Of a stretch of 64,000 bases of DNA, positions 381 to 62,890 are shown in pieces. Each line of letters starts with the position of its first letter. Within the stretch, counting starts at the first letter, position 1. This DNA is from Vicugna vicugna. Lineage: Eukaryota. A program made the translations under genes and the position numbers. The notes beneath the pieces were generated by a model. It was not told the origin of the DNA and did not search any database. It was given only the letters and a program-made list of their open reading frames with translations. The stretch lies in the NCBI GenBank assembly GCA_013265495.1, contig MU057651.1:2644948-2708947 (forward strand), read 5' to 3'.

Positions 381-1419
381 GTCACCCTGAGAGGCTTTTC
401 AAAAGTCAGATGAACTCAGATGGCACACAGATGCCCCGAAACCCGGCACTGACCTACCAGAGCCTACGTGACTCGCCTCGGGGATGGAGGTCAATTCAGG
501 TGGCCCCTCCCTGCACCTCTGGAACCACCCGCAATGATCTCAATAAATAAGAAAAGGACAAAACTGCGAAGAGTTCCTGGTGCAGGAGCAGGTCCCTGCC
601 TCCAAAAGGCAAGTCAAAACCCAGGCCCTTCTGGGCAACACGCAGAACTACAGAGTGGCCACTTCTGTGTGATGGTGCATCCCCAGGCAGGGCAAAATAT
701 ACCTCTGTTTCCGAACTTACCAGCTTCCAGAACATTCTGAACCCCGGAGTCCCAGGACTTTGGAGAACGTAGCATTCTGCCTGCAAAACTCCCCCAGGGA
801 GCAGGAAACGTATGTTTGTTGAAGCCCTACTGTGTGCCGGGCACTGTGCAATGTATTGACTGACACTTCCCTTTGATATTTACAATCCCTGAAAGAATTA
901 GCACTGTGGGCGGGGTCTGTGCTCTCCTGACACACGCCCCCCGGGCATTCGAGTCGCTGGAAACACATCACCCCTCTTTCCCCCTTCCTCCTTCCACGGT
1001 GGCATTCAGAGGGGTCCGAAGACCTGGAAGTGTGATTCCAGCTCTTCCACTAACACCCGCTGGACCCCGAACCAGGCACCTATCTGACTGTGAGGGGCGC
1101 CCATTTCCACACCTGTGTAGAAGGAAGTCTCTCCCTCTCCCCCTTGCAGGTTTGTCCTGAGGACCCAATGCAACCCACAGCCTTGCAGAGTAAGGAATTC
1201 ACCACCCCCGGGTCATGTTGTTCTGGTCCTTCCCAAACAGCAGCACAGCACCCTGTCCCAGCAGGGCTGGAGCTCCCTGGGAAAACACACACCTCGCCGT
1301 GATCCCATCCCAGCAACGGCAAGGATGTGGTACCAAAGGCCCACAGCAGCCGATTCAGGTTTCGGCGTTTTATAAAATGTTCTTCTGAACGTAATTTACT
1401 CAGTAACTGCTCACATCTT

Positions 1420-3410
1420 AGCAGCCTTTCTTCCAGCATAAGGATAGTTCTAAGAAGAAAGGAATGTAGAGAAATGAAGAATAAAAAGCTATAAGATACG
1501 CACAAGCCAAAAATGAGCAAAAATGTCAGACGTTCCTCGTTATCCGTTATCACTTTAAACGTAAATAGATTAAATCCTTCAATCAAAAGCAGATACTGGC
1601 AGAATGGAGGACACACACACACACACACACGCATGTGCACGAAACCCAACCATCGCTGTCTATAGAAGACTCCCTTGAGGTCCAAAGACACAATCAGGTT
1701 GAAAGGGAAAAGATGGGAAAAGATATTTCATGTTAAGATTAACAAAAGGGGACCTGAAGTCACTATAGCAACGTCAGCCAAAATATACTTTAAGTCACGA
1801 CTGTTACAAAAGACAAAGAAGGACATCAGATATTGAGAGAGACCCCCCCCCAAATATATGAAGTCAACGCTGACACGACTGAAGGGAGAAAGAGACAGAC
1901 ATACACGAGTTGGAGATTTTAACACCCCCCTGTCAGTAATGGGTGGAGCCACCAGGCAGAAGATGAGTGAGGAACAGAGGACCTGAACGCACCATAAACC
2001 AACTGGATGTCACAGATGTGACGTGCGTTGGACACTCCCCTCAACCACAGGAGGACAGTCTTCTTAATGGCATGCGGGACTTTCTCAAGGATGACAGGAC
2101 ACAAAAAAGGTTTTCCATATATGAACAAAACCTACGGCTATCATCATGCTCAACGGTGGGAGTCTCCCTTTAAGATCGGGAACAAGTCAACAACGCCCAC
2201 TTCCAACTCTTCTATTTAACACAGTATCGGAAGTTGTAGCCAAAGCAATCAGGCAAGAAAAAGAAATCAAAGGTATGCAAATTGGAAAGGAAGAACTAAA
2301 ATCACCTTTGTTTGCAGATGGCATAATCTTATATGCAGAAAATCTTAAAAATTACACACACACACACACACACAAGAAATTACCAGAGTTACTCAATGTA
2401 CCAAAGTTACAGGATATGTCAACATGCAAAAATCAGTTGTGTGTCGACACACTAACAATGGCCAATCTGAAAAGGAAACTGAGAAAACAAGTTCATTTAA
2501 AATAACACCAAGAATAATAAAATAATTAAGAATAAATTCAAACCAAGAGGCCAAGACTTGTACCCTGAAAATGACAAAATGTTCCCATATGAATATGAAT
2601 AAGACATAAATGAGAAGAGACATCTTGTGGTCACGTATCGGAAAACTTATTGTTAAGTCAAAATAATCTTCAGATTCAATGCCCTCCTATCAAAATCTCA
2701 CTGGCATCTTTACAGAAATAGAATTCGTATGGATTCCCAAGGGACCCCGAATAGCCCAAACCATCTTGAAAAAGAAGAATAAAGTTGGGAAAGTCACATT
2801 TCCTGATTTCAACACTCACTACAAAGCTACAAGTAGGCAAAACTGCAGCCTTGGCCTGAGAACAGACGCAGACTTAACAGAACAGCACCGAGAGCCCAGA
2901 AGTGAGCCCTCACGTACGTGGTGGGTTAAACTTTCAACAAGGATGCCAAACCATTCAATGGGGGGAAGAGACAGTCTTTTCAACAAATGACACAGGGGAA
3001 ACTGGACTTCCACACGCAACAGAATGACGTGAACGCTTACCTTACCCCAGCAACAAAAATTAGCTCAACGTGGATCAGTGATCTAAACACAGGAGCTGAA
3101 ACCAGCTCTTAGCACCCACAGGGGAGTATCTTCGTGACAGTGGATTGAGAAACGACTTCGTGCGGACGGCACCCGAAGAATGAAACAGATCCACTGAACT
3201 TTATCAAAATTTAAGACTTTCGTGTATCACAGGACAAGAGCGTGGAAAAGACCGGCCAGAGAAAGGGACCAAATAGTTACCAATCACGCAAATGCTAAGG
3301 GATTAATATTCAAAATATATAAAGATCTCCGGCAAATCAACAACAAAATGCAGATCAAGATCACAATGAGGTACCACCTGCTGCCTATGAGGATGGCTGT
3401 TATTTTAAAA
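1420..3410 (+). mobile_element. Old, internally deleted LINE-1 ORF2 remnant
   Basis: ORF2 start-like ATCACTTTAAACGTAAATAGATTAAA near 1549; ORF 2146-2505 [29 protein letters not shown] (RT motif); ORF 2679-2990 PRIAQTILKKKNKVG; MQIKITMRYHL near 3350. Confidence 0.93.
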
Positions 3411-3414
3411 AAAC

Positions 3415-3640
3415 AGGGATAAAAGAGATAAATGACAAGGTCCTACTATATGGCACTGGGAACTGTGTTCAATACCGTGTAACAGTCTATCATGAAAAAA
3501 AAATCTGAAAAGGAATATACGTATGTGTGTGAGTAACCGAATCTCTACTCTGTACTCCGGAAATCAACACGGCATTGTAAACCGACTATGCTTGAATTAA
3601 ATATAAGTAAATAAATAAAAATAAATTTTAAAAAAAATTT
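3415..3640 (+). mobile_element. Younger L1 3' UTR stub nested in the old L1
   Basis: ACAAGGTCCTACTATATGGCACTGGGAAC...ATTGTAAACCGACTATGCTT plus A-rich tail; host L1 resumes at about 3680-3770. Confidence 0.75.
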
Positions 3641-5589
3641 AAATGGGGGGAGGGAGGACGAGGAAGGAAGGAAAAATTGGAAAATACTGAACTAGTGAGG
3701 ATGTGGAGAAATTTAAACAGTTGCACACGGCTAATGGGAATGCAAAACAGTGCAGCCACTGTGTTAACTGTCTGGGGGCTGTGGCCCTGAATATTAGTCC
3801 CTGTGACATCGCTGAACCTTCGAGAAGCACCGAGTTGTGCACTAGCAGCACATGTCTAGGGAGATGTTTGATAAAAGATGACAAAGGAACAGAGTCCAAA
3901 GCCCCTCGCGCTCTGTCCATGCACGTGTTGGACATCTAGGGTGGGCAAGAACCCCCAAATTCCCCAGGGGTGGAGACTGCTTCCAGCAAACACCGCTGAG
4001 GGCGCAGGAGCAGAGATGCCAGCGGACTGAAGGTGGTGCTTGGAACCCAGGGTCACTTCTAACGGCACCTGAAGCCCCGCATCCTGGGGCATCACCACCA
4101 TGCCTGCCCCTGGTCACCGGTCCCTTCATCCTCACAGAGCCCAGACGGGGAGGGCGCCCACCTCCTCCTCCCTCAGCTGGCAGTGAGACAGCAGCCTCCA
4201 GGGACAACAGCTCCCTCGGAGTGGCGCTTCCAACAGGTCCTCTGTCAACACCCTGAGGGGGGACTCCGGCTGCCAGTGACAAATGTCAGTTGATCAAAGG
4301 GATGATCGGTGTGTGAACAGGTGATCCTGTTTTTCTGAAGACGGCGGCTCCTGTGTGCAGAGCAGTCAGTCCAGCCCCATCCAGAGGGCGAGCGCTCCCC
4401 GGCTTCAGCATCTCTGCCCCGGAGCCGTCCGACAGGCTCCCCCCAGGAAGGCGCAGGCTCGGGACAAAGATGCAGTGGGACGAGATGTGTGTATCCGAGG
4501 CTCTGACACCAGACTAGACATGTCAGCGAGGCTTCAGAGTCCACCAGGCCTTGGTCTTCTGTTTTCAGCAGAGAAAAAGGTCCAGTTCCCCCAGGAGCCC
4601 TGATCTCCCCATGTCCACAGCCAGCTCCCGCACCCTCTGCCCATCACTGGGCTAAGAGCGATTGGACCCATTTATCTGGGTACCGTTGTTACTTGTTACA
4701 TATTAAACAATTATGATTAGAAACGGTGACACACCACCATCCCACGGCCAACACCCACAGAGGCTGCGGGATCCTGGACTCCGGCTGGATGGCCCGAGAG
4801 CGGTCAGGGAGCCTGTCTCCAAGAACACGCGCATCTCAGAGCCCCTGGTCACCAAAAGCCACGGCGAGAACAGTGTAAAACTGATTGCCACAGCCCTTCC
4901 AGGTGGCCCAGGGCGGCCCTTCCGGGCCAGCGCGTGGATCAGAACCGAGCCATACTGTGAGCTGGACCCCGGCGCATCCTGGTGCCAGCCGGCCGCACGG
5001 GATCGCTGGGCGCCCGGCCACCAGGGCTCGGGCACCGGGGCGCAGGGCGCAGGGCGCAGTGCAGGAGACGGAGCCTGGTCCCCAGGCCTTGAACCTGAAA
5101 GAGGAGGGCCAAGCAGAGTGGGTCAGACACCACCTTGTCAGCCTGACCAGTCTGGTCGCTGCTGGGACGAGCACAGGGGCACGGGCCCGACAAGGCCCAA
5201 GGCCAACAATGGCCTACCCAGGGGTCCAGACGGTGGGATGGCCACGGCACCAGCTAAAAGCTAACCCTCTGCCCCTTGTCCCTCCCCCAGGACCATCGGG
5301 AGACACACACGATGGAACCATGAGCTTCTCTCAGTTGCTCGGGCCTGGGCACCAGCCTCCTGGCCCTCCCTCCCAGAACATCCAAATAAAACATGCGCGT
5401 AAGTTCGAGCCCGCCACTGGCTCGGCTCTGGGCAGGCCAGAACCAAACATGGAAAAAAAGGAATAAGGCAAAAATTGGAGAGAAGAAACCATGTAAGGAA
5501 CAAGGGGGGAAAAATTTAACTAATATGGATACATTATATATACACGATTTTTAAAAATAATATTATCTATGAAACAAGAATATTATGAC

Positions 5590-5965: not shown

Positions 5966-6079
5966 TGGGTGGGAGGAGGTAATTAGGTTTATTTACTTTT
6001 TAGGGGAGGGACTGGGGATTGAACCCAGGACCTCGTGCATGCTAAGCATGCGCTCCACCACTTGCGCTACACCCTCCCC
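5966..6079 (-). mobile_element. vic-1-type camelid tRNA-Ala SINE
   Basis: Reverse complement has A/B boxes and the CCTAATTACCTCC tail; 16-bp TSD AATAAAAGCT(A/G)TTCTG at 5950-5965 and 6080-6095. Confidence 0.92.
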
Positions 6080-11049: not shown

Positions 11050-12700
11050 CTGAATCAGCATTTTCGGAAACAAAGTGTTCTGGGCAGGGCCTGGTAAACA
11101 GCGGCGGAGAGAAAGTTGTGCAATAAGGCGTATTTACTCACGAGCGCTACTTCTCTGGGTCTCTGCCGTTGCATCCCCTTGAATGAAGCCGGGTGCAACC
11201 GTTTGCAAAAAAAAAAAAAAAAAAAAAAAAGCTCGCTGGCGAACGCAGCGCAAAAGATCCAGGCCCGGGCAGGGTCACCTGTGGCTCCCCTTCGGGGACC
11301 CAGGGACCCAGGGCTTCGCCAAAGCCAACGCCAAAAAGTTGGCCTTCCTTGCAGTCCCGAGAGAAGAGGAACACAATGAAAAGTGAATACCCTCCTCTCC
11401 GCACCGCCCGGCGCACACGCTCCAGGGCCGCGGCCAGGCAGGCGTTCCGAGCGGCGCTCGGCAAGGCGGGGAGTTGCATCAGAACTGCCTCCTGCGAACC
11501 GCGCGGCTCTTATCGCATTTCCACGGCTGGCGGCCGGCTGACCCGGGACCGGGGCGGCGGGGGGGGGGGNNNNNNNNNNNNNNNNNNNNNNNNNNNNNNN
11601 NNNNNNNNNNNNNNNNNNNNNNNNNNNNNNNNNNNNNNNNNNNNNNNNNNNNNNNNNNNNNNNNNNNNNNNNNNNNNNNNNNNNNNNNNNNNNNNNNNNN
11701 NNNNNNNNNNNNNNNNNNNNNNNNNNNNNNNNNNNNNNNNNNNNNNNNNNNNNNNNNNNNNNNNNNNNNNNNNNNNNNNNNNNNNNNNNNNNNNNNNNNN
11801 NNNNNNNNNNNNNNNNNNNNNNNNNNNNNNNNNNNNNNNNNNNNNNNNNNNNNNNNNNNNNNNNNNNNNNNNNNNNNNNNNNNNNNNNNNNNNNNNNNNN
11901 NNNNNNNNNNNNNNNNNNNNNNNNNNNNNNNNNNNNNNNNNNNNNNNNNNNNNNNNNNNNNNNNNNNNNNNNNNNNNNNNNNNNNNNNNNNNNNNNNNNN
12001 NNNNNNNNNNNNNNNNNNNNNNNNNNNNNNNNNNNNNNNNNNNNNNNNNNNNNNNNNNNNNNNNNNNNNNNNNNNNNNNNNNNNNNNNNNNNNNNNNNNN
12101 NNNNNNNNNNNNNNNNNNNNNNNNNNNNNNNNNNNNNNNNNNNNNNNNNNNNNNNNNNNNNNNNNNNNNNNNNNNNNNNNNNNNNNNNNNNNNNNNNNNN
12201 NNNNNNNNNNNNNNNNNNNNNNNNNNNNNNNNNNNNNNNNNNNNNNNNNNNNNNNNNNNNNNNNNNNNNNNNNNNNNNNNNNNNNNNNGGGGCCGGAGTC
12301 CCCGGAGGCCGCCGCCCGGGACCGGCAGGCGGGCGGGGGCGCGCGGACCCCCGGTCCCGCCCCGCCCCGGGCGCGGACTCGGGCTCCCGCCCCCCCGAGA
12401 CCCCGCGGACCTCTCCCGAAGGGCGATCTGCGAGCGAATTCTTGGAAACTCCAGCAGGAGCCGCGCCGCCAGATCCTTTATCCCGGGCGCAGCGGCAGGA
12501 CGGCACCGGGAGAGGGGAACCCGGGCGCGCGGCGGCCGCAGCCCGCCAGGTCTGGATCCTCGCCTCTCCCAGCCTCAGTTTCCCCGCCTGCCTTGAGCCC
12601 CGGCGTGGGCGTGCGGGTGGCGTGGGGAGGTCCTGCAGCTCTTCTTAACAGCGCCAAGCCTCGAGCCCTTATCTCTGAAATGGGCTGATAAGCCGCCTCA
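11050..12700. promoter_or_regulatory. CpG island interrupted by an assembly gap
   Basis: Very GC/CpG-rich on both sides of the gap; GC box CCCGCCCCGCCCC near 12356; A24 tract at 11207-11230. Confidence 0.85.
11570..12288. other. Assembly gap (719 N)
   Basis: Run of N flanked by a G-run and GC-rich sequence. Confidence 1.
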
Positions 12701-16448: not shown

Positions 16449-16580
16449 TTTTTTATTTGTTCTTTTGGGCGGAGGGGAGGTAATTACGTTTATTTATTTA
16501 TCTTAATGGAGGTCCTGAGGATTGAACCCAGGACCTCGTGCATGCTAAGCACATACTATACCACTGAGCTACACCCTCTC
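16449..16580 (-). mobile_element. vic-1-type SINE
   Basis: GGAGGTAATTACG...GATTGAACCCAGGACCTCGTGCATGCTAAGCAC...CCACTGAGCTACACCCTC. Confidence 0.9.
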
Positions 16581-16780: not shown

Positions 16781-16904
16781 TTTTTAATGGAGGGAGGTAA
16801 TTAGGTTTGTTTATTTATTTATTTTTAGAGGAGGGACTGGGAATTGAACCCAGAACCTCATGCATGCTAGGCATGCACTCTACCACTGAGCCATACCCTC
16901 CCCC
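16744..16904 (-). mobile_element. vic-1-type SINE
   Basis: Same head and tail with a (TTTA)n tail; probable TSD GTTTTCTAGTTTT near 16730 and 16909. Confidence 0.9.
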
Positions 16905-19888: not shown

Positions 19889-19976
19889 GTGGTGGGAATA
19901 GCTCAGTGGTAGAGCACGTGCTTAGCATGCATGAGGTCCTGGGTTCAATCCCCAGTGCCTCCAAAAAAGGAAAAGA
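19889..19976 (+). mobile_element. vic-1-type SINE, tRNA head plus A tail
   Basis: TAGCTCAGTGGTAGAGCACGTGCTTAGCATGCATGAGGTCCTGGGTTCAATCCC; TSD-like AAAATGT(A/G)ATCT on both sides. Confidence 0.9.
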
Positions 19977-20695: not shown

Positions 20696-20799
20696 GGGGA
20701 GGGTGTAGCTCAGTGGTAGAGCGTGTGCTTAGTATGTACGAGGTCCTGGGTTCAATCCCCAGTCCCTCCACTAAAAACATAAAAAAATAAATTAAAAAA
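20696..20799 (+). mobile_element. vic-1-type SINE, tRNA head plus A tail
   Basis: GGGGAGGGTGTAGCTCAGTGGTAGAGC...GGTTCAATCCCCAGTCCCTCCA then A-rich tail. Confidence 0.9.
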
Positions 20800-24892: not shown

Positions 24893-25419
24893 CTGACAGG
24901 TGGGAAAGCTCAGTACGGACAGTCCGGGTCTGCCTGAGCCCACAGCTCTGTCATCAGACAGCGGGGCTGCCGGATTCAGTCCCACTCACCTTGCAGGCGC
25001 ACACCTGCCCTCCCACCTGTTAGCATATGGCGTTAGCAAGCCCATAAAAGCCGAGAACCCTGCACCCCGTGGCTCCTCTCCCTTTGGAGTGAGACGGCCC
25101 GCACTCTCTTGATGGCCTGCGCATCTCTCTTTCCTGCACGACGCCCGGGACCCACCCTCGGTGAGGCACGCACGTCCTCAACGGGGAGCCCTCTGGCCCC
25201 ACAGTTTCCTGCATCAGCTCAGTGCATAGCTCAGTGTCAGAGATGCTCGGTGGATGAGAGACGCGGGGCGTTCCCCGGCCCCCCCCCATTTGATGGAGCT
25301 GCTGCTGAAGGAAAGAGACACACACTTGCGGGCGCCCCAGGTGCGTTTCCTGGCACAGGTTCTGTCGGATAAGTCTGCCTCTGACGCCCCCAACCTCCCC
25401 CAACACATGCCCATTTAAA

Positions 25420-26200
25420 GCCGTTGGGTGCGCCCTGCAGCCCGGCCCGGCCCCAGGGCACGCGAGGGGGCTCCGCGGGGCGGCGGTGACGCTGCCCCTC
25501 ACTGTCCCCTGGGCAGTGTCCCCGGGGGCCCCCGCGGCGGCTCACAGAAGACGGCTCAGCGGACTACGCGCGGCCGAGCTGGAACGGGACACGCTGGCCA
25601 CCTCTCAGGGTTGTTCGGAGTCCGCCGGGCGCTACCCGTTTAGTGGACACTCGCTGCCCGGGGCGGGGGCGGGGCTCTCAGCCACCGATGAGGCCACGCC
25701 CCCTCCCAGCTCCCCGGGAGCCAATCAGAGGCCAGCGTGACCGATGCGCCCCCCCCACCCCGCGCGCGCCCCTCCCACTTGGGTTCCCGCCTTTGGGAGC
25801 CGCGGAGACACCAAGCCGGTTCGCGGTGGGTGGCCGGGAGGACAAGACCACGAGATGGCACGGGCACAAGCAGGGGACACCGAGTGATGGAGAGAAGGGA
25901 GTGGAGAATCGCTCAGAGGCCGTGGCGCCCCCGGAGAGCGGGCCCCGCGCGGAGCCCAGGGTGGGTCCGCACCCGGCTCCTCCTCCTCCCTGCAGGTGAG
26001 TGAGCCGCTGCTCTGTCCAACCAAAGGGAGTCGGGCCACCCCAGGGGCCGAGCTGACGCTTGACGTCACAAGCATCTCTGAATAACAAGTGTTGTTAACC
26101 ATTACCAGTAACAGCTTGTTGTTTGGAGGAGAGGCCGCGCGGCGGCCTGGGTTTAAGTCTGCCTTTTCCTTCCGAGCTGGTCCACCTTGGGCGAGTGACT
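25420..26200 (+). promoter_or_regulatory. Small CpG island with promoter motifs and a splice donor
   Basis: Overlapping GC boxes 25660-25675; GCCACGCCCC at 25693; CCAAT at 25721; CAG|GTGAGT at 25995/25996; CRE TGACGTCA at 26061-26068. Confidence 0.6.
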
Positions 26201-35089: not shown

Positions 35090-35250
35090 TCCGTCTGTCT
35101 ACCTATCTACCTATCTGTCCATCCGTCCATCTGTCTATCTATCTATCTACCTATCTATCCATCCATCCATCTATCATCTATCCATCTATCTGTCCATCCA
35201 TCCGTCTATCTATTCATCTATCCGTCCATCCGTCCATCTGTCTATCTATA

Positions 35251-35282
<32 letters not shown>

Positions 35283-35376
35283 CATCTATCTGTCCATCCA
35301 TCCGTCTATCTGTTCATCTATCCGTCCATCTGTCTGTCTATCTATCTATCTATCTATCCATTTATCCATCTATCTA
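35090..35376. repeat. Compound (TCTA/TCCA/TCTG)n microsatellite
   Basis: Directly visible tetramer mosaic. Confidence 0.97.
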
Positions 35377-35554
35377 TAATTGAACTCTTAGACTAAACCA
35401 TCTTGTCCTGTCAGGAGGGAGACATCTCCAATTCAGGGACCTCTGTGTTAAAGATAAATTATGGCCTCAGTGCCAGTGACCACATCATTCCCACCCCGTT
35501 GCATGTTAAGGGCATGAGAAAGATCACCTTTGTCCTGCCCAGCTTGCCTGGCTC

Positions 35555-46098: not shown

Positions 46099-46119
46099 CA
46101 CAAGCGTTTTTATTCTGCT

Positions 46120-47250
46120 ATTTATTCCAACGTTTTATTATGAAAAGTTTCAGACATACAGAAACGTCGATCGTGTACTACGATGAGCTCATATATTCAA
46201 CAATTTTTAATAAATCCCCACATCTGCTTTCTCCATTCATGTGTGTGTGTGAGACAGACTACAAAGGTGTGTGCGCGCCTGTGTGTACGTCTCTACACGC
46301 TGTTTCCTGAACCACGTGGAAGGAGATTTCGCAGACCTCGGGCCCCTCATCCCTAAACACCTCAGCCTACATCTTCTGAGAACAAAGACACAAAAGGACC
46401 AGCAGGACCCCCAGCAGGGCCGCTGCTCTCCTGCCGGCACCACCCGGCTCCCTGGCCCAGAGGCGCTGTCTCACTTTTTGCCTCTGAAACGGCTTACTTA
46501 CCCCTGAAGTTCTATTGGTTCCCTGAGCTCACTCCTGATTGGTCCGTTTGTAGTGCTTCATTTTCATGGAACTCACTAGTGATTGGTTATTTCTCTCACT
46601 CCTGAATGGCCTGTTTCCCTCATTCCTGATTGGTCCATATAGTATTTCATTTGCATGGAGCTCACTTCTGATTGGTTATTTCTCTCCCTCCTGATTGGTC
46701 CATTTCCCTAACATCTGATTGGTCCTGTTGTAGTACTTCATTTGCATGTAGTACTTCATTCACTCCTGATTGGTTATTTCCCTCGCTCCTGATTGGTCCA
46801 CTTCCCTAACTTCTGATTGGTCCATTTGTAGTACTTCATTTGAATGGAGCTCACTCCTGATTGGTTATTTCTCTCCCTCCTGATTGGTTCATTTCTACAA
46901 AGCTTTTTCCTGGTTGGTCAACTTCTGTTATACTCTATTTGCATATGATGTTGCAAAGTGTAAACTGGCACCTATAAAGGCCTCAGTAAACCCACAGACG
47001 GGGTCCAGAGCTCGGAGTGTTAACTCCTTTCGGCCCGCTGGGGTAATAAACCTTTCTCCAACCTTCCAGGTGCTGCTTGGTCTCTCGCCTGGACCCAGGT
47101 TGCTGTCACAACTGAGCTGTGGCACGTTTTTCTGCAACAAACACACACAGGACACCTGACGGTAATTCCCACGTGTAACGTGACGTCTGGCTCATTGGGA
47201 AATGTCCCCTGGTTGTCTCTAAAATGTCTTTTGCAGCTATTTCAAATCGG
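46120..47250 (-). mobile_element. Old L1ME-like 3' UTR split by the LTR
   Basis: TTTTATTATGAAAAGTTTCAGACATACAG..CCCTAAACACCTCAG..GAGAACAAAG before the LTR; ..GTTGTCTCTAAAATGTCTTTTGCAGC after it. Confidence 0.6.
46386..47139 (+). mobile_element. Solo ERV LTR with a tandem CCAAT/octamer U3 array
   Basis: 12 ATTGG, 3 ATTTGCAT, TATAAA at 46973, AATAAA at 47045, 3' end TGCAACA; 5' boundary approximate. Confidence 0.8.
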
Positions 47251-48166
47251 TTCTTCAGTAAGTGAACTAAATCTGCTTTTCTTTCTTTCTTTCTTTCTTC
47301 CTGCCCGCTCTGGCAATGAACAGGGTGGACCCCGATCTCGCTCACTGAGGACGGGGAGGCAGGAGGAAGAGCGGGTTTAGAGGAGGAAGGTGATGAGTGG
47401 TGATCGTTTTATGCAGAGGTCTGCACTCAGGATGCACCCCTGGGAGCCGTCCGGCCACGGGGGGAGCTGAGACGTTGGGAGTGCGTGAGATAGGAAGGGA
47501 TGTCACCTTGTCACTGGTGGCGTCACCATTTATCTAGACACCACCGTCTGCTTGGCGCTGTCCTAGCACTTTTCATCACGAGTTCCTTTTCTTACCACTA
47601 TCTTATGAGACAGGATTTTTCTGAGAAGGACACGGTCCCAGAGGGGTCCGGTAACTCGCTGAGTCTTAGCTGCTGGCACATTTGGGAGCAGAGATTTGAG
47701 CCTGACTCTCTGGTTCCGAAGTGCCTGTCCGTGAGCGCGGTGCCCACTGCTCCCTGCACGGAGGTGGGAAAGGCGGCCACGGATGGATAGAAGCTTGAGC
47801 AGACAGGAGAGGGTCTCCTGAAGGCACCTGGGAAGAAACAGCCAGAGAAAAATCCTGGAGGGAGAACATTGGAGGCACCAAGGGGCCGTGGCTTGCATAC
47901 CTTTATTCCTGTTTTGTTTATTCTGCAGGTGAGTCCTGCCAGCCAGTCCAGAGCTCCCCGGGGCCGCGAGCTGGAGTGCAGTGGGCTTCTGAACGGGGTG
48001 GGGGGGGAGTGAAGATGGTCCAAAATCCAGTCCTTTCTGGATGCTTGGTGGGATGGGAAGGAGGCATCCAGGGTAGCTGATAGATGGGGAAATCGGAGCC
48101 AAGGGACTGTTTGTTAAAAAGAATGGGACAGACAGTGGGCAGGAAGAGGTTAAACGCAAAAGTTCT

Positions 48167-48375: not shown

Positions 48376-51099
48376 GCTGACAGCGGTGTCCGGGTTCCCC
48401 CACTGTGATGGGGGCCGAAGCGGAGAGGAGCGAGTGAAGGCAGCCAGGATGGAGTGAGCCCGAGTTTGCAGGCAAAGCTCATGCATCTTGGGCAAGACCT
48501 GTGCCTGACGTGGCTGGCGTTTGGTGCCTTAGTTGGAGCACAGGGTTCCATGATGTGTGGGTTTAAATTCGCCTTCTCTGATGTGGGGAAAAAAAATGCT
48601 ACAAAATATCTTAGATGGTCTGTTGGACCCGCATCACTTGGAAATTAATAACAAATATGTCATGGAGTCACTGTGGGTACTCCGACCTCCCTCTCGCTCC
48701 TCACAAGTGGGCAGTACGTTTTTGCCAGAATCAACTGAACCAGGGAGCTGAGGAAGGACTGAGAGGTGCAGAGAGGGAGGCAGTCCCTGCAGAGGGGACA
48801 GCGAGGCACACGGGCATGGAGCCGCCCCTTGGAATCTAGCATGTGAGGAGGGCGAAGTCCGACCGAGCCCCTCAAAGCGAGATGCAGAAGGATGCCGTAA
48901 AAGATGCGAGTGGAGAAATTGGGTCCAGCCCCCCGGATCCTTCCCCGAAGGGGTTGTGCATTTGTGTGTCTCTGGAACACCAGCTTCACTGTGGGGTCCT
49001 CGGAGTGGTAGCCAGGTGTCTCTTGTCGGGGGCTCCTGCCCCCGGGTTGGCCTTGAGCCCCAGCAGCCACCTTGTCACCAGGATAAGAGAGGCGGAGGGC
49101 AAGGTTTCCTGTGAAGCACGTGGGACCCAAGATAAAATTTCCCTAAGTCAACTGATCTCTCAAACAAACAAAAAAAAAGAGCGGGGACGTATTTCTAAGT
49201 CTGGGTCAGCTGGAGACAGCTCTGGGGCAGACTGTGTAACCCATTAAACAAACAGAAGCCGTTGTAGAAACGCTTAAAGGCAACAGAATGATGCGTCATT
49301 CAGAGCAATTCTCTTTATCTCTCCAAAAGGGCTTTAAAAAAAAAAAGCCTCAAGATTATACAATAAAAATCCCAGGTCTGTTTGAGAAATTGCACCCGCC
49401 CTCGGCGGATAGACTGCTGTCCACACTTCAGCCTTTCAATTCAATTCAGTTTTGCTTCATCAGAACCAACGGCCCAGAGACGGGCCTCTGGCATCACATG
49501 TACCTGGGACCGGTCCCTGCGCCTGGCTTCGGTGGCTGGTCAAAGCCACTTTGAGTGCCCGGGGTCCCCTTGGGACACTCGGGGAACTCATGCTTGCAGG
49601 GCTACTGGGAGGGTCATGCGAGGAGATGCGTGTCACGTGCCGGCGCCCCGTCCACCTCGGCTGCCATCGTTGTTGGGAGCAAAGCACGGAAGTGAGGCTC
49701 CTCCGGTGTCAGATGCTCTGCTGGCTTCCCAGCTCTGAGGCCGCGAGCTTTTCATCGCTGCACGAATGTCCCCTGTGCCCCTTAGCAGAGAGGTGTGCAA
49801 GCTCCCGCCCCACTGTTGTGAAGACCCGGCTCACGGCGGAGTCATGTGGGCAGTGGCCAGACAACTGCGTCTTTGTTTGGTCGCTTAGTGATGTCACCCT
49901 GGAAAAATCTTCGCTCAGATCATTCTGCTGGGAACAGTTAAAGAGCCATTTCTCCAGTCTCCCCGTGTGGCCAATGCTGGGGGGACGGAGACAAAACACA
50001 TGCCATTAGGGCTTGGCCTCCAATGAACGGACCCCCCCCCCAGTAGCACGCAGGGTGGGGCTGATCACGAGTTTCCTGAAACCCACCCCCCTCTCCCTGT
50101 TGCCTGGATGATGTGCACAAGTATCTTATCAGCGTGATTTGCCTGGATTTGGAACTGCAGGGAACTCCGACAGTAGCTTATAGCTGCAGGGACCTGGCTG
50201 GGGTGGGGTGGCGGGGAGGATTTTCAGAGCAAATTAATGCTCATTGACACGGAAGTTTCAGAAGATGCATTTACCCAAGGAGGACAAATGTTTTTGAAAT
50301 CTTCGTGTAAGTGGAGGTGAATTAACTATAATGAGTGACCAACCATCCTCGCGTCCTTTTGAAGCGGTTCCTCTGGGGAGAAAGCTTGAAAGGGTCATGT
50401 GAGGTTGTTATCTCCGCGGGATGGAATTTCAGAACCAGAAGGGCCAGTTAATCCAGCCTCCTTAACCCTGCAGGTGGGTTCCAGGCCTGCCTGGGGTCAC
50501 CCTAGGGGGTGTTGGGGGAGGAACAAGGGGGACCGAGCAGGGTCCCCCTCTGTGGATGGGAAGAGGCGGGCCACTCCCGGCCCACTGTCTAGATCACCAG
50601 TCAGCGTTTATTATGCACCACCTGGATGCCGTCTCTCTGATTTTCAGCTGGAGCCGAGCACACAGCCCGGCAGATCCAGCGCATCTTCCCACACCTTGAG
50701 ATTCGCGGCTGGCGGCTAATTTACAAAAATCCATTTTCTGTCAAAACAAATGGGCCAGAAAGCTCAACCCGCGTGAATTCCTGTGATGAAACATGAACGC
50801 GTAAAAATGTTTCGTGGCTGCATTTTCAGACTCTTGACTCTGGGTTTCTCTGTCTGTACGTAACACACTGCGGGGTGTGGGGGGTTTGGTAGCAAAGTGT
50901 GAGAGGCACCCCGCTGGCTGGGCTGGATGCTGTTTGTATCCTGGGATCCAGACACGGCAGAAACCTGGCTGGACTCTATGAGTTTATCTCTGGAGTCAAA
51001 CACCAGTGTGATCTCCAGTGCTGCCTCCTCCGTGTCTTCCCTGAAGACAGATTTTTAGGAAACAAGGATGCCCCTTTGAGATAAAACTGAATAAGGAAA

Positions 51100-52264: not shown

Positions 52265-52356
52265 GGGGAGGGCGTAGCTCAGTGGTAGAGTGCATGCTTA
52301 GCATGCATGAGGTCCGGGGTTCAATCCCTAGTCCCTTCATTAAAAAAAAAAAAAAA
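52265..52356 (+). mobile_element. vic-1-type SINE, tRNA head plus polyA
   Basis: GGGGAGGGCGTAGCTCAGTGGTAGAGTGCATGCTTAGCATGCATGAGGTCCGGGGTTCAATCCC then an A run. Confidence 0.92.
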
Positions 52357-57292: not shown

Positions 57293-57334
<42 letters not shown>

Positions 57335-57457
57335 TCTATCCATCTACCTATCCATCCATTTCTCTATCTATCTGTCTATCTGTCTGTCTGTCTACCCATC
57401 CATCCATCATCTATCTATCCATCCATCCATTCATCCATCCACTTATGCATCCATCCG

Positions 57458-57512
<55 letters not shown>

Positions 57513-57622
57513 GTCTGTCTGTCTGTCTACCCATCCATCCATCCATTCATCTTATCTATCTATCTGTCTGTCTGTCTATCTATCTATCTATCCATCCATC
57601 CATCCATCTATGCATCCATCCG

Positions 57623-57688
<66 letters not shown>

Positions 57689-57710
57689 CACCCATCCATC
57701 TATCTATCCA

Positions 57711-57744
<34 letters not shown>

Positions 57745-57897
57745 CATCCATCCATTCATCTTATCTGTCTGTCTGTCTGTCTATCTATCCATCCATTCTG
57801 TCTATCTGTCCATCCATTCTGTCTATTTATCTATCTATCCATCCATCCATCCATCCATGTATCTGTCTGTCCATCCATCTGTCCATCCATCTGTCTG

Positions 57898-57957
<60 letters not shown>

Positions 57958-57960
57958 ATC
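57293..57960. repeat. Long compound (TCTA/TCCA/TCTG)n microsatellite
   Basis: About 670 bp of tetramer mosaic. Confidence 0.98.
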
Positions 57961-60190
57961 TTTTCTAGTTCTGTCCACTAAGGGTCAAAAGCAATGACGC
58001 TTAGCAGCTGTGAGCACACCTCATGCCGAGATCTTGATTTCTGAATGTATTTTCCCTTAAAAAGAAAGAATTCCCCTTGGATAAGGAAATTCATTCCAGA
58101 GCTGGGACTTGCAAAATACAAGGCAAGTCCAGAATACCTTATTACTCCAAAAAGTAAATAATTGCTCAAAGAATGATGGAGATATTTCAAAAGGATACAC
58201 AGCCAGTTTAAGGGACTCCACCAAAAAAGTCTAGAGCAATTGGAGACTCAGAGTCCGTGCTAATAATGAGTAATAATCTACAGCAGAATATCAGAATCCA
58301 TAAGTTTATACCAATAAGTGGATAAGTGAATGGGAGAATGGAAAAATATTTCCTACAACAAAATACCGAGCCATAAATACAGAAGGAAAAAATCTATTTC
58401 AATTAATTCATTCAGTTAATTCCATTAATCTTTTGAAAACCACCATTGGGTGACAAGTGTAGTAATAATTGATTTAGGCAAGATTCACCAGTGGCTAAAA
58501 CTAGTGAGTAAAAGTTGTTTTTTTTTTTTTTGATAAACAGAATAGTTACATAGTCTCCAAGTATCACCCCATAAAATAGTTAATTACAAAAAAAGAAACC
58601 AAAAAACCCTCAACTTTACAGTAGAGAAAACTATCAGGACACTCCATAATCTGTGTCATCAAGGTTAACGTCACCAGTTTGAAGACAACTTACCGTGTGC
58701 TTCCTGAAAAGATGCCATGAAAAAAGAATCTACTGTCTCTTCTGTGTTATTACCGCCCAAAATGGATGACTTAAATAAAATTATACGGCAACATCGGTTT
58801 AATCCACTCAAGGGACATTCTATAACCATATACTGTTAATCCCTTAAAAATTTCAATGTCATGACGTATAAAGCATGAGGAATTAAGATTAAGGGAGACT
58901 ACAGATACAGTAATTAAATGTAAGGCATGATGATTCTGGATTGAAACTAGCGCCTGGGATGTTTTTTTCTCTTGCTGTGAAGAACATTATTGCAACATTT
59001 GATGAAATTTGAATAAAATCTGTAGATAATCATGCAGAATTCATGTAAGATCTCTGATTTTCATAATTGTACTGTAGTTAGATAAGAGAATGTCTTTGGT
59101 TTTCTGTTTGTTTGTTTGGTTAGGAAATACACACCAATGCATTTAGGGGCAGACTAAATGTTTACTTCCAAGTAGTACAAAAAAAAAGAAAAATGAAAGG
59201 AAAATATTGTTAAATATCAATATTTGTGTCATCTAGGTCAAGGGTATATGAGAATTCTTTGGATTACTACAACTTTTCTGCAAATCTGAAATTATTTTGA
59301 ATTTAAAAGTTTTGAAAAGTGACCAGAAATGATGGAAAGATTTGAAAACAACACAGTGGGAGAAGATATTTTCAGGGCCAAGGGCTTGCTTCCAGAATGT
59401 AGAAAGACATCTTTCCGATCAAAAAGAAAAAGAAAAAGAACCTAATAGAAGGGCAAGAAATTTGGAGGCATTTCAAGGAAAAAAGATACTCAAATGGCCA
59501 ATAAATGTATGAAAAAGAACTCAGCCTTATAAGTCATGAAAGAAATGGAGTGAAAACCATGAGATGGCTCTGCCCACCCACCAAAATGGCTGGTGAATCC
59601 CGTCTTGGTGAGGCTGCAGACCACTGGACCTCTCAGGTCTTGTTGGTGCGTAGAAATACTGGCAAAAACCACTTTGGGAAACTGACATTATCCACTAAAG
59701 CAAAACATATCTGCCCCTGATCACCCCAAAATGCTACTTCTAGTGACCTGCCCCATAGAAGTGCATGTGGCATTCACCAAAAATGTGGGCAGCTCTCCCA
59801 CGGAAGACTGGATGTCCTGTGGGGTACTCAAACAATTCTTTCCCATGTAGTGATGCAGAGCAACACACGCACAGTGATCTGGATGAATTTCACAAACATA
59901 CTGTTAAATGAAAAAAAGCCAGACATGGAAGACGCACGTTACAGGATGGCCCGTGTGTGGAGCTATACGGAGAGGCAGAATTGCACTGCAGAGACAGAGG
60001 TAAGAGTTTCAACCCTATGGGAGCATGAAGCAGCCACACGGTGGTTTCTTGGGTGGGGACGATGTTCTATTTCTAGAACCGGGAGGTGGTTGCCCAATTA
60101 TGCTCCCGACATGGTAATTAGTTGAGCCACAATGTTTGCATTGTGACCTCTTTTTTGTTGTGTGTCATATTCAGTAAAAAATTAAGAACA
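57961..60190 (+). mobile_element. Old L1MC 3' UTR followed by an L1ME-type ORF2/3' fragment
   Basis: TTCTAGTTCTGTCCACTAAGGG..; CAACTTTTCTGCAAATCTGAAATT; CAAATGGCCAATAAATGTATGAAAA; GGATGAATTTCACAAACATACTGTT. Confidence 0.75.
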
Positions 60191-60839: not shown

Positions 60840-62890
60840 AGTTGGTAAACTCCTCGTCTTTGCAAATCAAAAAAGTCTGTATTTTGCCCCCTCATTAGAA
60901 GAATGATCATGTTCAAAGTTCAAAGTTGACGGCTGGTTTTCCTTGGCACTTTGAAGATAACACTTCATTATTACTGGAGGCAATAAATTCTGTAGTTTTG
61001 GGACGATCCTATATTTTTATGTGTGACATTCTGCCATTTCACAGCCGTGTGTGTGTGTGAGTGAGATTTTATTTTTATTTGCCCTGGTTAGAACTCAGAG
61101 TGAATTGTCTAAAAGAGCACATCTTTCCACATTTCCAGAAAATTCTCAGCAATTATCTCATAAAGCATTTATTTTTGATCATTCTCTTTCTGCTCTTTTT
61201 ATGAAATTCCTTAAGAGTATATTATAGACTCTAAATGTATCCTCTAGGTTCTTAACTGAGGTTTCATTTAAAAACAAACAAACAAACAAAAACCTTTTTT
61301 TCCCTCTTTTGACTTTTGGGTAAATTCTATGTTCCAGCTCACAAATTCACCTTTTGGCATCTATTTTAGAATTCATCCAGTTTTTTGATTTATTAGATTT
61401 TATTTTAATGTTTATATATTTTATTTCTGAGAATTAATTTTTTTATGATCACCATTTTTTTCACTGTTTTCTTTCCCCAGCTTGCTGAAGTATAATTTAC
61501 ATCACTCACTTAAAGTTTACAGTTTTCAGTGATCATTACATTTTGTAACCACCACCAGCATGAGATACGGGAGCATTTCTATTACCCCAGAACTTCTCTC
61601 CTGCACCTTTGTTATTAATCCTGTCCCCAGGCTTCTAGCTTTGGGAAATAACCATTGTGATTTTGTCTTTTCCAGAACTTCAGCTGCAAGGAATCATACC
61701 ATATGGAGTCTTCTGCTTTTAACTTCCTTCACTTGGCACAATTTTGTCATGATTGTTACACGTATGGATCATTTATTCCTTTTAGTTGCTGAGTAATATT
61801 CCAATGTACAGATAAAACTAGTCTGTTCATTCATACATTGATGGAATCTTGGGATGTTCCCCATTCTGGGCCATTATAAACAGTGCTGCTGTGAAAATTC
61901 ACTGACATTTTGTGTGGACAGGTTCGCATTCCTCTTGGCTGAATGCCTAGGAGCAGAAATGTTGAATTACACAGTAAGTGTGTGTTTATAAAACTCTGCT
62001 CAACTGACTCCCAAAGCCGCTGCATTATTTTACATTCTAAACAGGATGTGAGGGTTTCATTTGCTCTGCTTCCTTGTCAACACTTACAATTGTCCGTCTT
62101 TTAAATTTCAGCCACTCTAGTGTCCGTGTATCTCAGTGGGATTTTAATTTGTGTTTTCCTGGTAACTAATGATGCCTGCTGGTCCTGCCTTAATGTATGT
62201 CTCGGTCATATACAGTCTGGAGATAAATCTTCTGTCAGATACTTGCTTTTCAAATGTTTCCCTCCACTTGGTGGCTTGTCTTTTCATTTTCTTAAGTGTT
62301 CTTTTAAAGAGCATTAAATTAAAATATGTAATTTTAAAGAGCATTAAATTAAGTATGTAATTGTGATGAAGCTCATTTCAATATTTTGCTCTGTGGGTTG
62401 CCTTTTTGGTGTCCTGTTAAAATCATCACTGTCAAACACAAAGTCACAGTGATGCTTCTCTGCTGTGTCCTTTGGAAGACTTACAAGTTAGCTGTTACAT
62501 TTGGGTCTACGATAAATACTAAAATTATTTTTTTATTTAATTTCCTTTTTGGGGGTGGGTAGTTAGGTTTATTTATTTATTTAACGGAGGGACTGGGGAT
62601 TGAACCCAGGACCTCATGCATGTAGGCATGCTCTCTACCGCTGAGCCACAGCTTCCCCACCGAAATTATTTTTGATAATGGTATGAAGTGAAGACCAGGT
62701 TCATTTATTTTCATACCAATATCCAGTTGTGCCAGGAGCAACTTGGGTAAAGATTTATCCTTTTTGGTCACACATCACTCGGCCACATAAATGAGACCCT
62801 GTCTCCAGACACTTTCTATTTCGTTCTATTGGTCTCGATATATGTCAGTCTGTCAGTTCCACATTGCCTTGAATTCTAAGGTTTGAAATT
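60840..62890 (-). mobile_element. Old L1/HAL1-like antisense fragments
   Basis: CTTGGCACTTTGAAGATA; TTGCTGAGTAATATTCC; ATAAACAGTGCTGCTGTGAAAATTC; GGGATTTTAATTTGTGTTTTCCT. Confidence 0.7.
62533..62660 (-). mobile_element. vic-1-type SINE
   Basis: GGGATTGAACCCAGGACCTCATGCATG..; TSD AAATTATTTTT at 62522-62532 and 62663-62673. Confidence 0.9.

Follow-up and report, generated by a model that had tools for sequence, protein, structure and literature searches.

How did a retroviral long terminal repeat (LTR) in a camelid genome come to carry a dozen CCAAT boxes interspersed with octamers, and is the array used by the host that now contains it? The question arises from a 64-kb stretch of Vicugna vicugna DNA (contig MU057651.1, the whole of which is referred to here as the window), in which an earlier note had described a solo LTR with an amplified enhancer array for NF-Y and octamer-binding factors and interpreted it as a convergent, probably camelid-specific module, inserted among developmental enhancers and possibly active in the germline or early embryo. 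NF-Y binds CCAAT, holds upstream DNA in a nucleosome-poor state and aids the binding of other factors, according to the portions consulted of PMC11853044 and bioRxiv 2019.12.12.874479. The same portions of PMC11853044 describe the U3 region of LTR12 as 5-17 tandem repeats of a CCAAT-bearing sequence of about 41 nt, bound by NF-Y.

We examined the borders, internal structure and age of the LTR and compared it with other members of its family and with published LTRs of similar design. Our analyses bear out the previous interpretation in part. We consider it probable (approximately 80%) that the locus is a solo LTR of a class I (ERV1-like) retrovirus, that the tandem array in U3 was multiplied in the virus, and that the present copy is now drifted, silenced or incidental.

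Results and Discussion

Identity and borders of the LTR

The LTR extends over 46391..47139 on the forward strand (about 749 bp), belongs to a high-copy family and terminates in CA. Its components retain the U3-R-U5 order, the array being followed by a TATA box (TATAAA, 46973..46978), a polyadenylation signal in R (AATAAA, 47045..47050) and, on direct reading, the end of R and U5 (47051..47139, with the terminal CA at 47138-47139), all on the forward strand; TATA box, polyadenylation signal and CA end lie where they had been reported. The TATA box follows the last exact ATTGG by 90 bp and the first base of the last octamer by 36 bp. The LTR is CpG-depleted, with an observed/expected ratio of 0.31.

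Evidence from other copies comes from contigs of public sequencing runs, four of 24 having been examined (X1, X7, X15 and X18); among the 24, 14 DNA-type runs representing two organisms (A and B) hold at least half of the words in the LTR. Both borders are sharp, contig depth climbing in the bin 46378-46431 and dropping in the bin 47134-47187, and 15 contigs of X18 run past 47139 into mutually dissimilar sequence (agreement 0.4). The 5' border is placed at 46389-46391, to within about 2 bp, one X18 contig losing its match at 46389; hence, of the span 46386..47139 given previously, the 3' end stands and the 5' start is displaced by the contigs. X1 and X7 each contain a 360-bp contig (46072-46431) that spans the 5' junction and departs from the present sequence at two of its 360 bases, and the 5' flank (46108..46390) has single-copy depth (10.5 in X1, 33.8 in X7). 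The immediate flanks of the LTR are repeats, that on the 5' side being presumably old L1 3'-end-like sequence. This copy has no TG at its 5' border, which may have been lost in a copy that has drifted by about 7%. When a target-site duplication of 4-6 bp was sought, three of four bases matched with a start at either 46391 or 46389; perfect candidates demand borders that contradict the contig evidence, and the flank is AC-rich. No contig among those listed bridges the 3' junction, the interval 47188-47295 being uncovered in all four runs, possibly through an effect of filtering, and no joint among those listed skips the LTR entirely.

We regard the LTR as solo because no second copy is present within the 64-kb window and, on direct reading, no PBS-like sequence follows 47139. 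No internal gag, pol or env was seen, and a Pfam search of six frames of 36001-64000 returned no families, a weak test that also missed an L1 ORF2-like remnant. The proposal of a solo LTR whose U3 bears tandemly amplified CCAAT boxes and octamers is supported.

Structure of the CCAAT/octamer array

The array contains 12 exact copies of ATTGG (CCAAT on the reverse strand), reproducing every position listed in the earlier note, where about 0.2 would be expected by chance in 374 bp; the LTR has no CCAAT on the forward strand. Ten of these 12 boxes have the form CTGATTGG, which occurs at three further sites in the window, all on the reverse strand, giving a total of 13 compared to 4.0 +/- 2.0 in shuffled sequences (0 of 100 shuffles reached 13). 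Perfect octamers at 46649, 46740 and 46937 and octamers with one mismatch at 46560 and 46838 were likewise recovered at their reported positions; across the window the octamer count is not above chance (7 matches, a number reached by 7 of 100 shuffles).

These motifs are arranged in a nested fashion: a CCAAT monomer of about 23 bp occurs three times and is closed by an octamer, forming a unit of about 90 bp, and four such units follow a partial one, all on the forward strand. The partial first unit (46505..46572) has boxes at 46514 and 46538 and an imperfect octamer at 46560, and is 75-80% identical to the full units. Unit 1 (46573..46661, 89 bp) has boxes at 46582, 46605 and 46629 and an octamer at 46649; unit 2 (46662..46759, 98 bp) has boxes at 46671, 46694 and 46718, an octamer at 46740 and a short internal duplication at its end. 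Unit 3 (46760..46850, 91 bp), which is 89% identical to unit 2, has boxes at 46769, 46792 and 46816 and an imperfect octamer at 46838, while unit 4 (46851..46947, 97 bp), divergent in its 3' half, has boxes at 46860, 46883 and 46913 and an octamer at 46937. Twelve of the 14 box positions are intact, the degenerate ones being 46605 (middle box of unit 1) and 46913 (third box of unit 4). The claim of a three-box-plus-octamer unit of roughly 90-100 bp is thus borne out by the lengths of the four units and requires amendment for these two degenerate boxes and for the two-box partial unit at the front. Pairwise, the four units are 78-89% identical (11-22% different). The excess of motifs over chance is real and has a simple cause in tandem duplication; as repeats of a single unit, the motifs owe their number to duplication and should not be counted as independent sites.

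A multi-copy family with variable array length

Contig depth over the LTR is approximately 1,200-6,700 times that of the flank, a rough ratio and not a copy count; the six LTR bins outside the array have 1,244-4,854 (X1) and 1,210-4,621 (X7) times the flank depth, and the array peaks at about 6,700 times. Multi-copy status is directly evident from up to 119 distinct X1 contigs at a single site of the LTR. The family probably numbered thousands of copies in the camelid ancestor, 'thousands' being an order of magnitude since summed contig depth is not a copy number. Some members keep internal sequence, given that three X15 contigs of other copies extend past 47138 and share a TGG-containing, PBS-like stretch, which we take to resemble an arginine-tRNA PBS. 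The LTR is putatively assigned to class I (ERV1-like), for which this PBS-like stretch is a weak hint. Searches for further copies in viral contigs (0 and 1 loci), metagenomes (0 and 3) and prokaryote genomes (6) returned ten loci matching only 20-27 pattern bases, which were rejected as chance. Among the sites listed at which at least 91% of the other-copy depth in X1 disagrees with this copy, 22 in number, 13 changes are AT-to-GC and 6 are GC-to-AT (p 0.17), a surplus that is possibly a trace of GC-biased conversion.

Family members differ in the length of the array. Of the 15 joints listed (of 45), 13 jump over 127-380 bp of array sequence, while of the other two one steps backwards by 46 bp and one falls downstream; joints at likeness 80 may be repeat artefacts, reads that fit two units are placed on one, and the short side of several joints is 33-52 letters and of several others below 30. 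Three near-duplicates of the commonest skip were left out of the 13, and in the ten in-array skips tallied between 2 and 9 of the 12 boxes are retained; seven boxes and two octamer sites survive the recurrent skip from 46541/46543 to 46752/46755. Independently, the depth summed across 46540-46863 corresponds to no more than 112-144 of the 324 bp for each copy, a deficit that fits a typical array about 210 bp shorter. Because other copies skip 127-380 bp in the array, often keeping seven boxes, the present copy is a long variant, and the term 'amplified' in the earlier note was apt, many members of the family having shorter arrays. That the long array is an artefact of assembly is unlikely, for its units differ by 11-22% and contigs of organisms A and B cover its 5' part (46516-46648 with two differences, 46516-46676 with four).

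Age of the insertion and of the unit duplications

This copy differs by 15.5% and 14.6% from six paralog pieces in each of the DNA runs, the pieces being the longest listed and probably biased towards divergent copies. As the units are about as divergent from one another as the paralogs (about 15%), the unit duplications are about as old as the insertion or older; likewise, unit identities of 78-89% set against this paralog difference indicate that no recent expansion of the array has occurred. The duplications probably arose in the virus. One X15 contig bridges the 5' junction by 39 bases (27 gap letters), and flanks in X15 differ by 5.5-6%; the 5' junction is therefore common to a camelid whose flank differs by about 6%. 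Camels and llamas diverged about 16-17 million years ago, and if the distance of X15 corresponds to this split, the insertion predates it and the family would have spread roughly 30-45 million years ago.

Proposed origin of the array

These observations can be accommodated by a history in which recombination would have left a solo LTR from a class I (ERV1-like) endogenous retrovirus. A CCAAT monomer of about 23 bp would have been tripled and capped with an octamer to form the unit of about 90 bp, which would have been duplicated afterwards; if PERV and LTR12 are a guide, slippage on the template in the course of reverse transcription would be the likely reason why the number of units varies among proviruses. 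NF-Y occupying the CCAAT boxes would be expected to keep U3 nucleosome-poor and to aid the binding of a POU factor (OCT1 or OCT4), and the two together might activate the TATA promoter (46973) in cells of the germline or early embryo, to the benefit of the virus. The present copy would be a long variant. It has drifted since, and in all likelihood it is either silenced or incidental in function, probably evolving neutrally today.

Comparison with other multi-CCAAT LTRs

Like ERV9/LTR12, the LTR has a U3 with several tandemly repeated CCAAT boxes, and solo LTRs of ERV9/LTR12 act as enhancers or promoters at some loci, according to the sections of PMC11853044 on which we rely. Unlike ERV9/LTR12, in which the repeat is about 41 nt and includes GATA and MZF1 sites, the array is built from a monomer of about 23 bp within a three-box unit of 89-98 bp that includes an octamer; GATA and MZF1 (GTGGGGA) sites have no match on either strand of the LTR. 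Membership of LTR12 was rejected, since the unit length differs and GATA and MZF1 are absent. The absence of these motifs of the LTR12 repeat also indicates that the likeness is one of design.

Porcine endogenous retroviruses (PERV) offer a comparison among the artiodactyls. As far as the consulted parts of PMC5932395 and PMC10968565 describe them, the number of repeat boxes in the PERV U3 varies, changes with passage and tracks viral titre, and Table 2 of the latter lists Oct-1 in addition. The gammaretroviral LTRs of PERV-A/B/C share with the present LTR a length of 600-800 bp and a U3 unit, made in their case of two sub-repeats, with an NF-Y site and in variable number, according to the same parts. 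PERV differs in its repeats (39/37 bp), its youth and its replication competence, whereas the present LTR has another unit length, is solo and belongs to an old family with paralogs about 15% apart. Several CCAAT boxes are also found in mouse RLTR10/MMERGLN and human MER51/MER57/MER122, which are bound by NF-Y in vivo (excerpts of PMC12065363; PMC3730095). These belong to other lineages, and in the same excerpts the chromatin around many of the bound copies is closed or unmarked, so that binding of NF-Y does not imply a function in the host. The surprise value that the earlier note attached to the array is diminished accordingly, variable-number NF-Y repeats having been published for LTR12 and PERV, and NF-Y and POU5F1 motifs for an artiodactyl LTR.

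The nearest precedents in abundance and host range are the MER41-type LTRs. Among bovine MER41_BT copies with open chromatin at the 8-cell embryo stage, motifs for POU5F1 (33.3%) and NFY (33.3%) are enriched (PMC7498599, in part), and 1071 of 5491 MER41_BT copies keep a match to the GAS (STAT1) motif in the material consulted from PMC9435751. Table S13 of PMC9435751, another part of that source, records 1227 orthologous hits for alpaca MER41_Vpa in the wild Bactrian camel, with zero for both cattle and pig. Like the MER41_BT and MER41_Vpa group, the present family is an abundant cetartiodactyl LTR, the camelid families of that group numbering in thousands and mostly predating the camel-alpaca split. 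GAS, which MER41_BT carries, was not seen here as a family feature, and a tandem three-box array is not described for MER41_BT or the _Vpa families in the parts consulted, the comparison being one of descriptions. The insertion may be camelid-specific, and related LTR families may exist in other cetartiodactyls. The parts consulted of PMC8605555, PMC6675863 and PMC13286661, which treat large ERV1 contents or enhancer roles of MER41_BT, do not mention the array. A literature search that did not extend to repeat libraries or most subscription journals turned up no account of CCAAT/octamer arrays in LTRs of camelids, and among the matches listed from motif searches of paper texts, none concerned this LTR family by title.

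Alternative explanations

It is rather more probable than otherwise that the LTR is a copy of a camelid consensus already catalogued, such as MER41_Vpa, MER41B_Vpa, MER41C_Vpa or another _Vpa family, which would be compatible with multiplication of the array in the virus. Absence of so abundant a family from repeat libraries would be unlikely. We take the LTR to be unlike human MER41B. In the available parts of PMC9435751, 1715, 978 and 1537 alpaca copies were extracted for these three families, which Repbase names, the same order as our depth estimate; alpaca ERV1 clusters are large (PMC8605555, in part), and bovine MER41_BT displays NFY and POU5F1 motifs in the same partial source as above. 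Against this identification, just one 9-mer resembles GAS (46563), and it coincides in part with a change found in this copy alone, while the MER41_BT consensus, as described in the parts consulted, carries GAS. The _Vpa consensus was not found in the passages and supplement files of PMC9435751 that were searched. It is, by comparison, unlikely that the extra units were added after insertion, at the locus itself, through unequal crossover or slippage in the host instead of in a replicating virus. The region of unit 1 has only 14-20 times the flank depth, suggesting that few copies closely resemble it, and units 2 and 3 (89%) are slightly closer to each other than paralogs are to this copy (85%). 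However, no pair of units is near-identical (78-89%), the non-motif columns differ between units by 20%, above the paralogs, which implies that some unit divergence predates the insertion, and the contigs of A and B cover 46516-46648 and 46516-46676 with two and four differences. Units may nonetheless have been added early after insertion.

Quite unlikely, in our estimation, is that the host has co-opted this long-array copy as an enhancer or alternative promoter of a nearby gene, its boxes being kept by selection. In its favour, 12 of 14 box positions are intact, and the CCAAT-core and octamer columns differ between units by 6.7% and 6.8% compared to 20.5% elsewhere, or about threefold greater conservation (Fisher p 0.038-0.059 on independent pairs, 0.07-0.11 for cores alone; the conserved columns are free of CpG, and it was the motifs themselves that defined them). 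This indicates motif constraint at some stage, which may have acted in either the viral or the host phase. The 5' junction is present in A, B and the more distant X15, CpG-rich promoter-like stretches occur at about 11-12.7 kb and 25.4-26 kb, and the 22 private changes listed all lie outside the exact ATTGG boxes, which is true by definition of such boxes. Single copies of LTR12 and MER41_BT are proven enhancers in the parts seen of PMC11853044 and PMC9435751. On the other side, the motif excess is borderline: the two changes seen among 70 core bases are compatible with neutral rates of 5-7.5% (P 0.32, 0.105), as are two among 40 octamer bases, and the degeneracy of both imperfect octamers (two of five) is peculiar to this copy, essentially all of the depth from other copies having them intact. 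Persistence is the norm, judging from the 1227 orthologous hits in the Bactrian camel for 1715 alpaca copies of MER41_Vpa. The Pfam search of 36001-64000, which is insensitive, provided no target gene, the LTR is depleted in CpG (0.31), and most NF-Y-bound human LTRs do not bear activating marks in the consulted part of PMC3730095. The RNA runs X15 and X18 hold contigs of the family, relatively deeper at both ends of the LTR than in the array. We did not accept them as evidence of transcription, since the depth of the contigs is flat and DNA may contribute to it; such contigs cannot reveal start, strand or level. A wider proposal, equally doubtful, would have the camelid LTR family spreading a tunable cassette of three NF-Y sites and an octamer to thousands of loci opening at embryonic genome activation, long copies being kept as dose-graded pluripotency or germline enhancers. 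If true, it would supply an independent camelid counterpart of LTR12 in which OCT replaces GATA, and a natural series relating NF-Y site number to pioneer activity.

Returning to multiplication of the array in the virus and subsequent drift, the LTR is a further instance of a known design in which CCAAT boxes are multiplied in U3, and quite possibly has a repeat name already. With it, camelids join the lineages in which CCAAT boxes have multiplied within a retroviral U3, and the LTR contributes a tidy nested architecture of three boxes and an octamer that has no camelid description in the literature searched. The finding neither overturns nor opens a long-standing question; should the family open in camelid embryos, its range of unit numbers would relate the count of NF-Y/OCT sites to accessibility across many loci.

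Neighbourhood within the window

The setting among developmental enhancers proposed in the earlier note gains no support from the immediate flanks, which consist of repeats. No gene was identified near the LTR by Pfam in six frames of 36001-64000, a search of low sensitivity. An Rfam scan of the window gave only seven tRNA-like hits, none of them in the LTR (6005-6076, 16507-16578, 16830-16900, 19892-19963, 20699-20769, 52268-52339 and 62585-62655). Each of the seven forms the head of a SINE from a single tRNA-derived family whose members share a tail, presumably the camelid Vic-1-like family. Two CpG-rich promoter-like stretches, at 11200-12700 (spanning a gap of 719 N) and 25400-26000 (with GC boxes and a CCAAT at 25721), are situated 20-35 kb from the LTR. 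On direct reading, the interval 50100-50900 is non-repetitive and rich in TAAT/homeobox-like words, and may be what the earlier note took for developmental enhancers. Long, degenerate TCTA microsatellites occupy 35094-35377 (71 copies) and 57295-57961 (166 copies).
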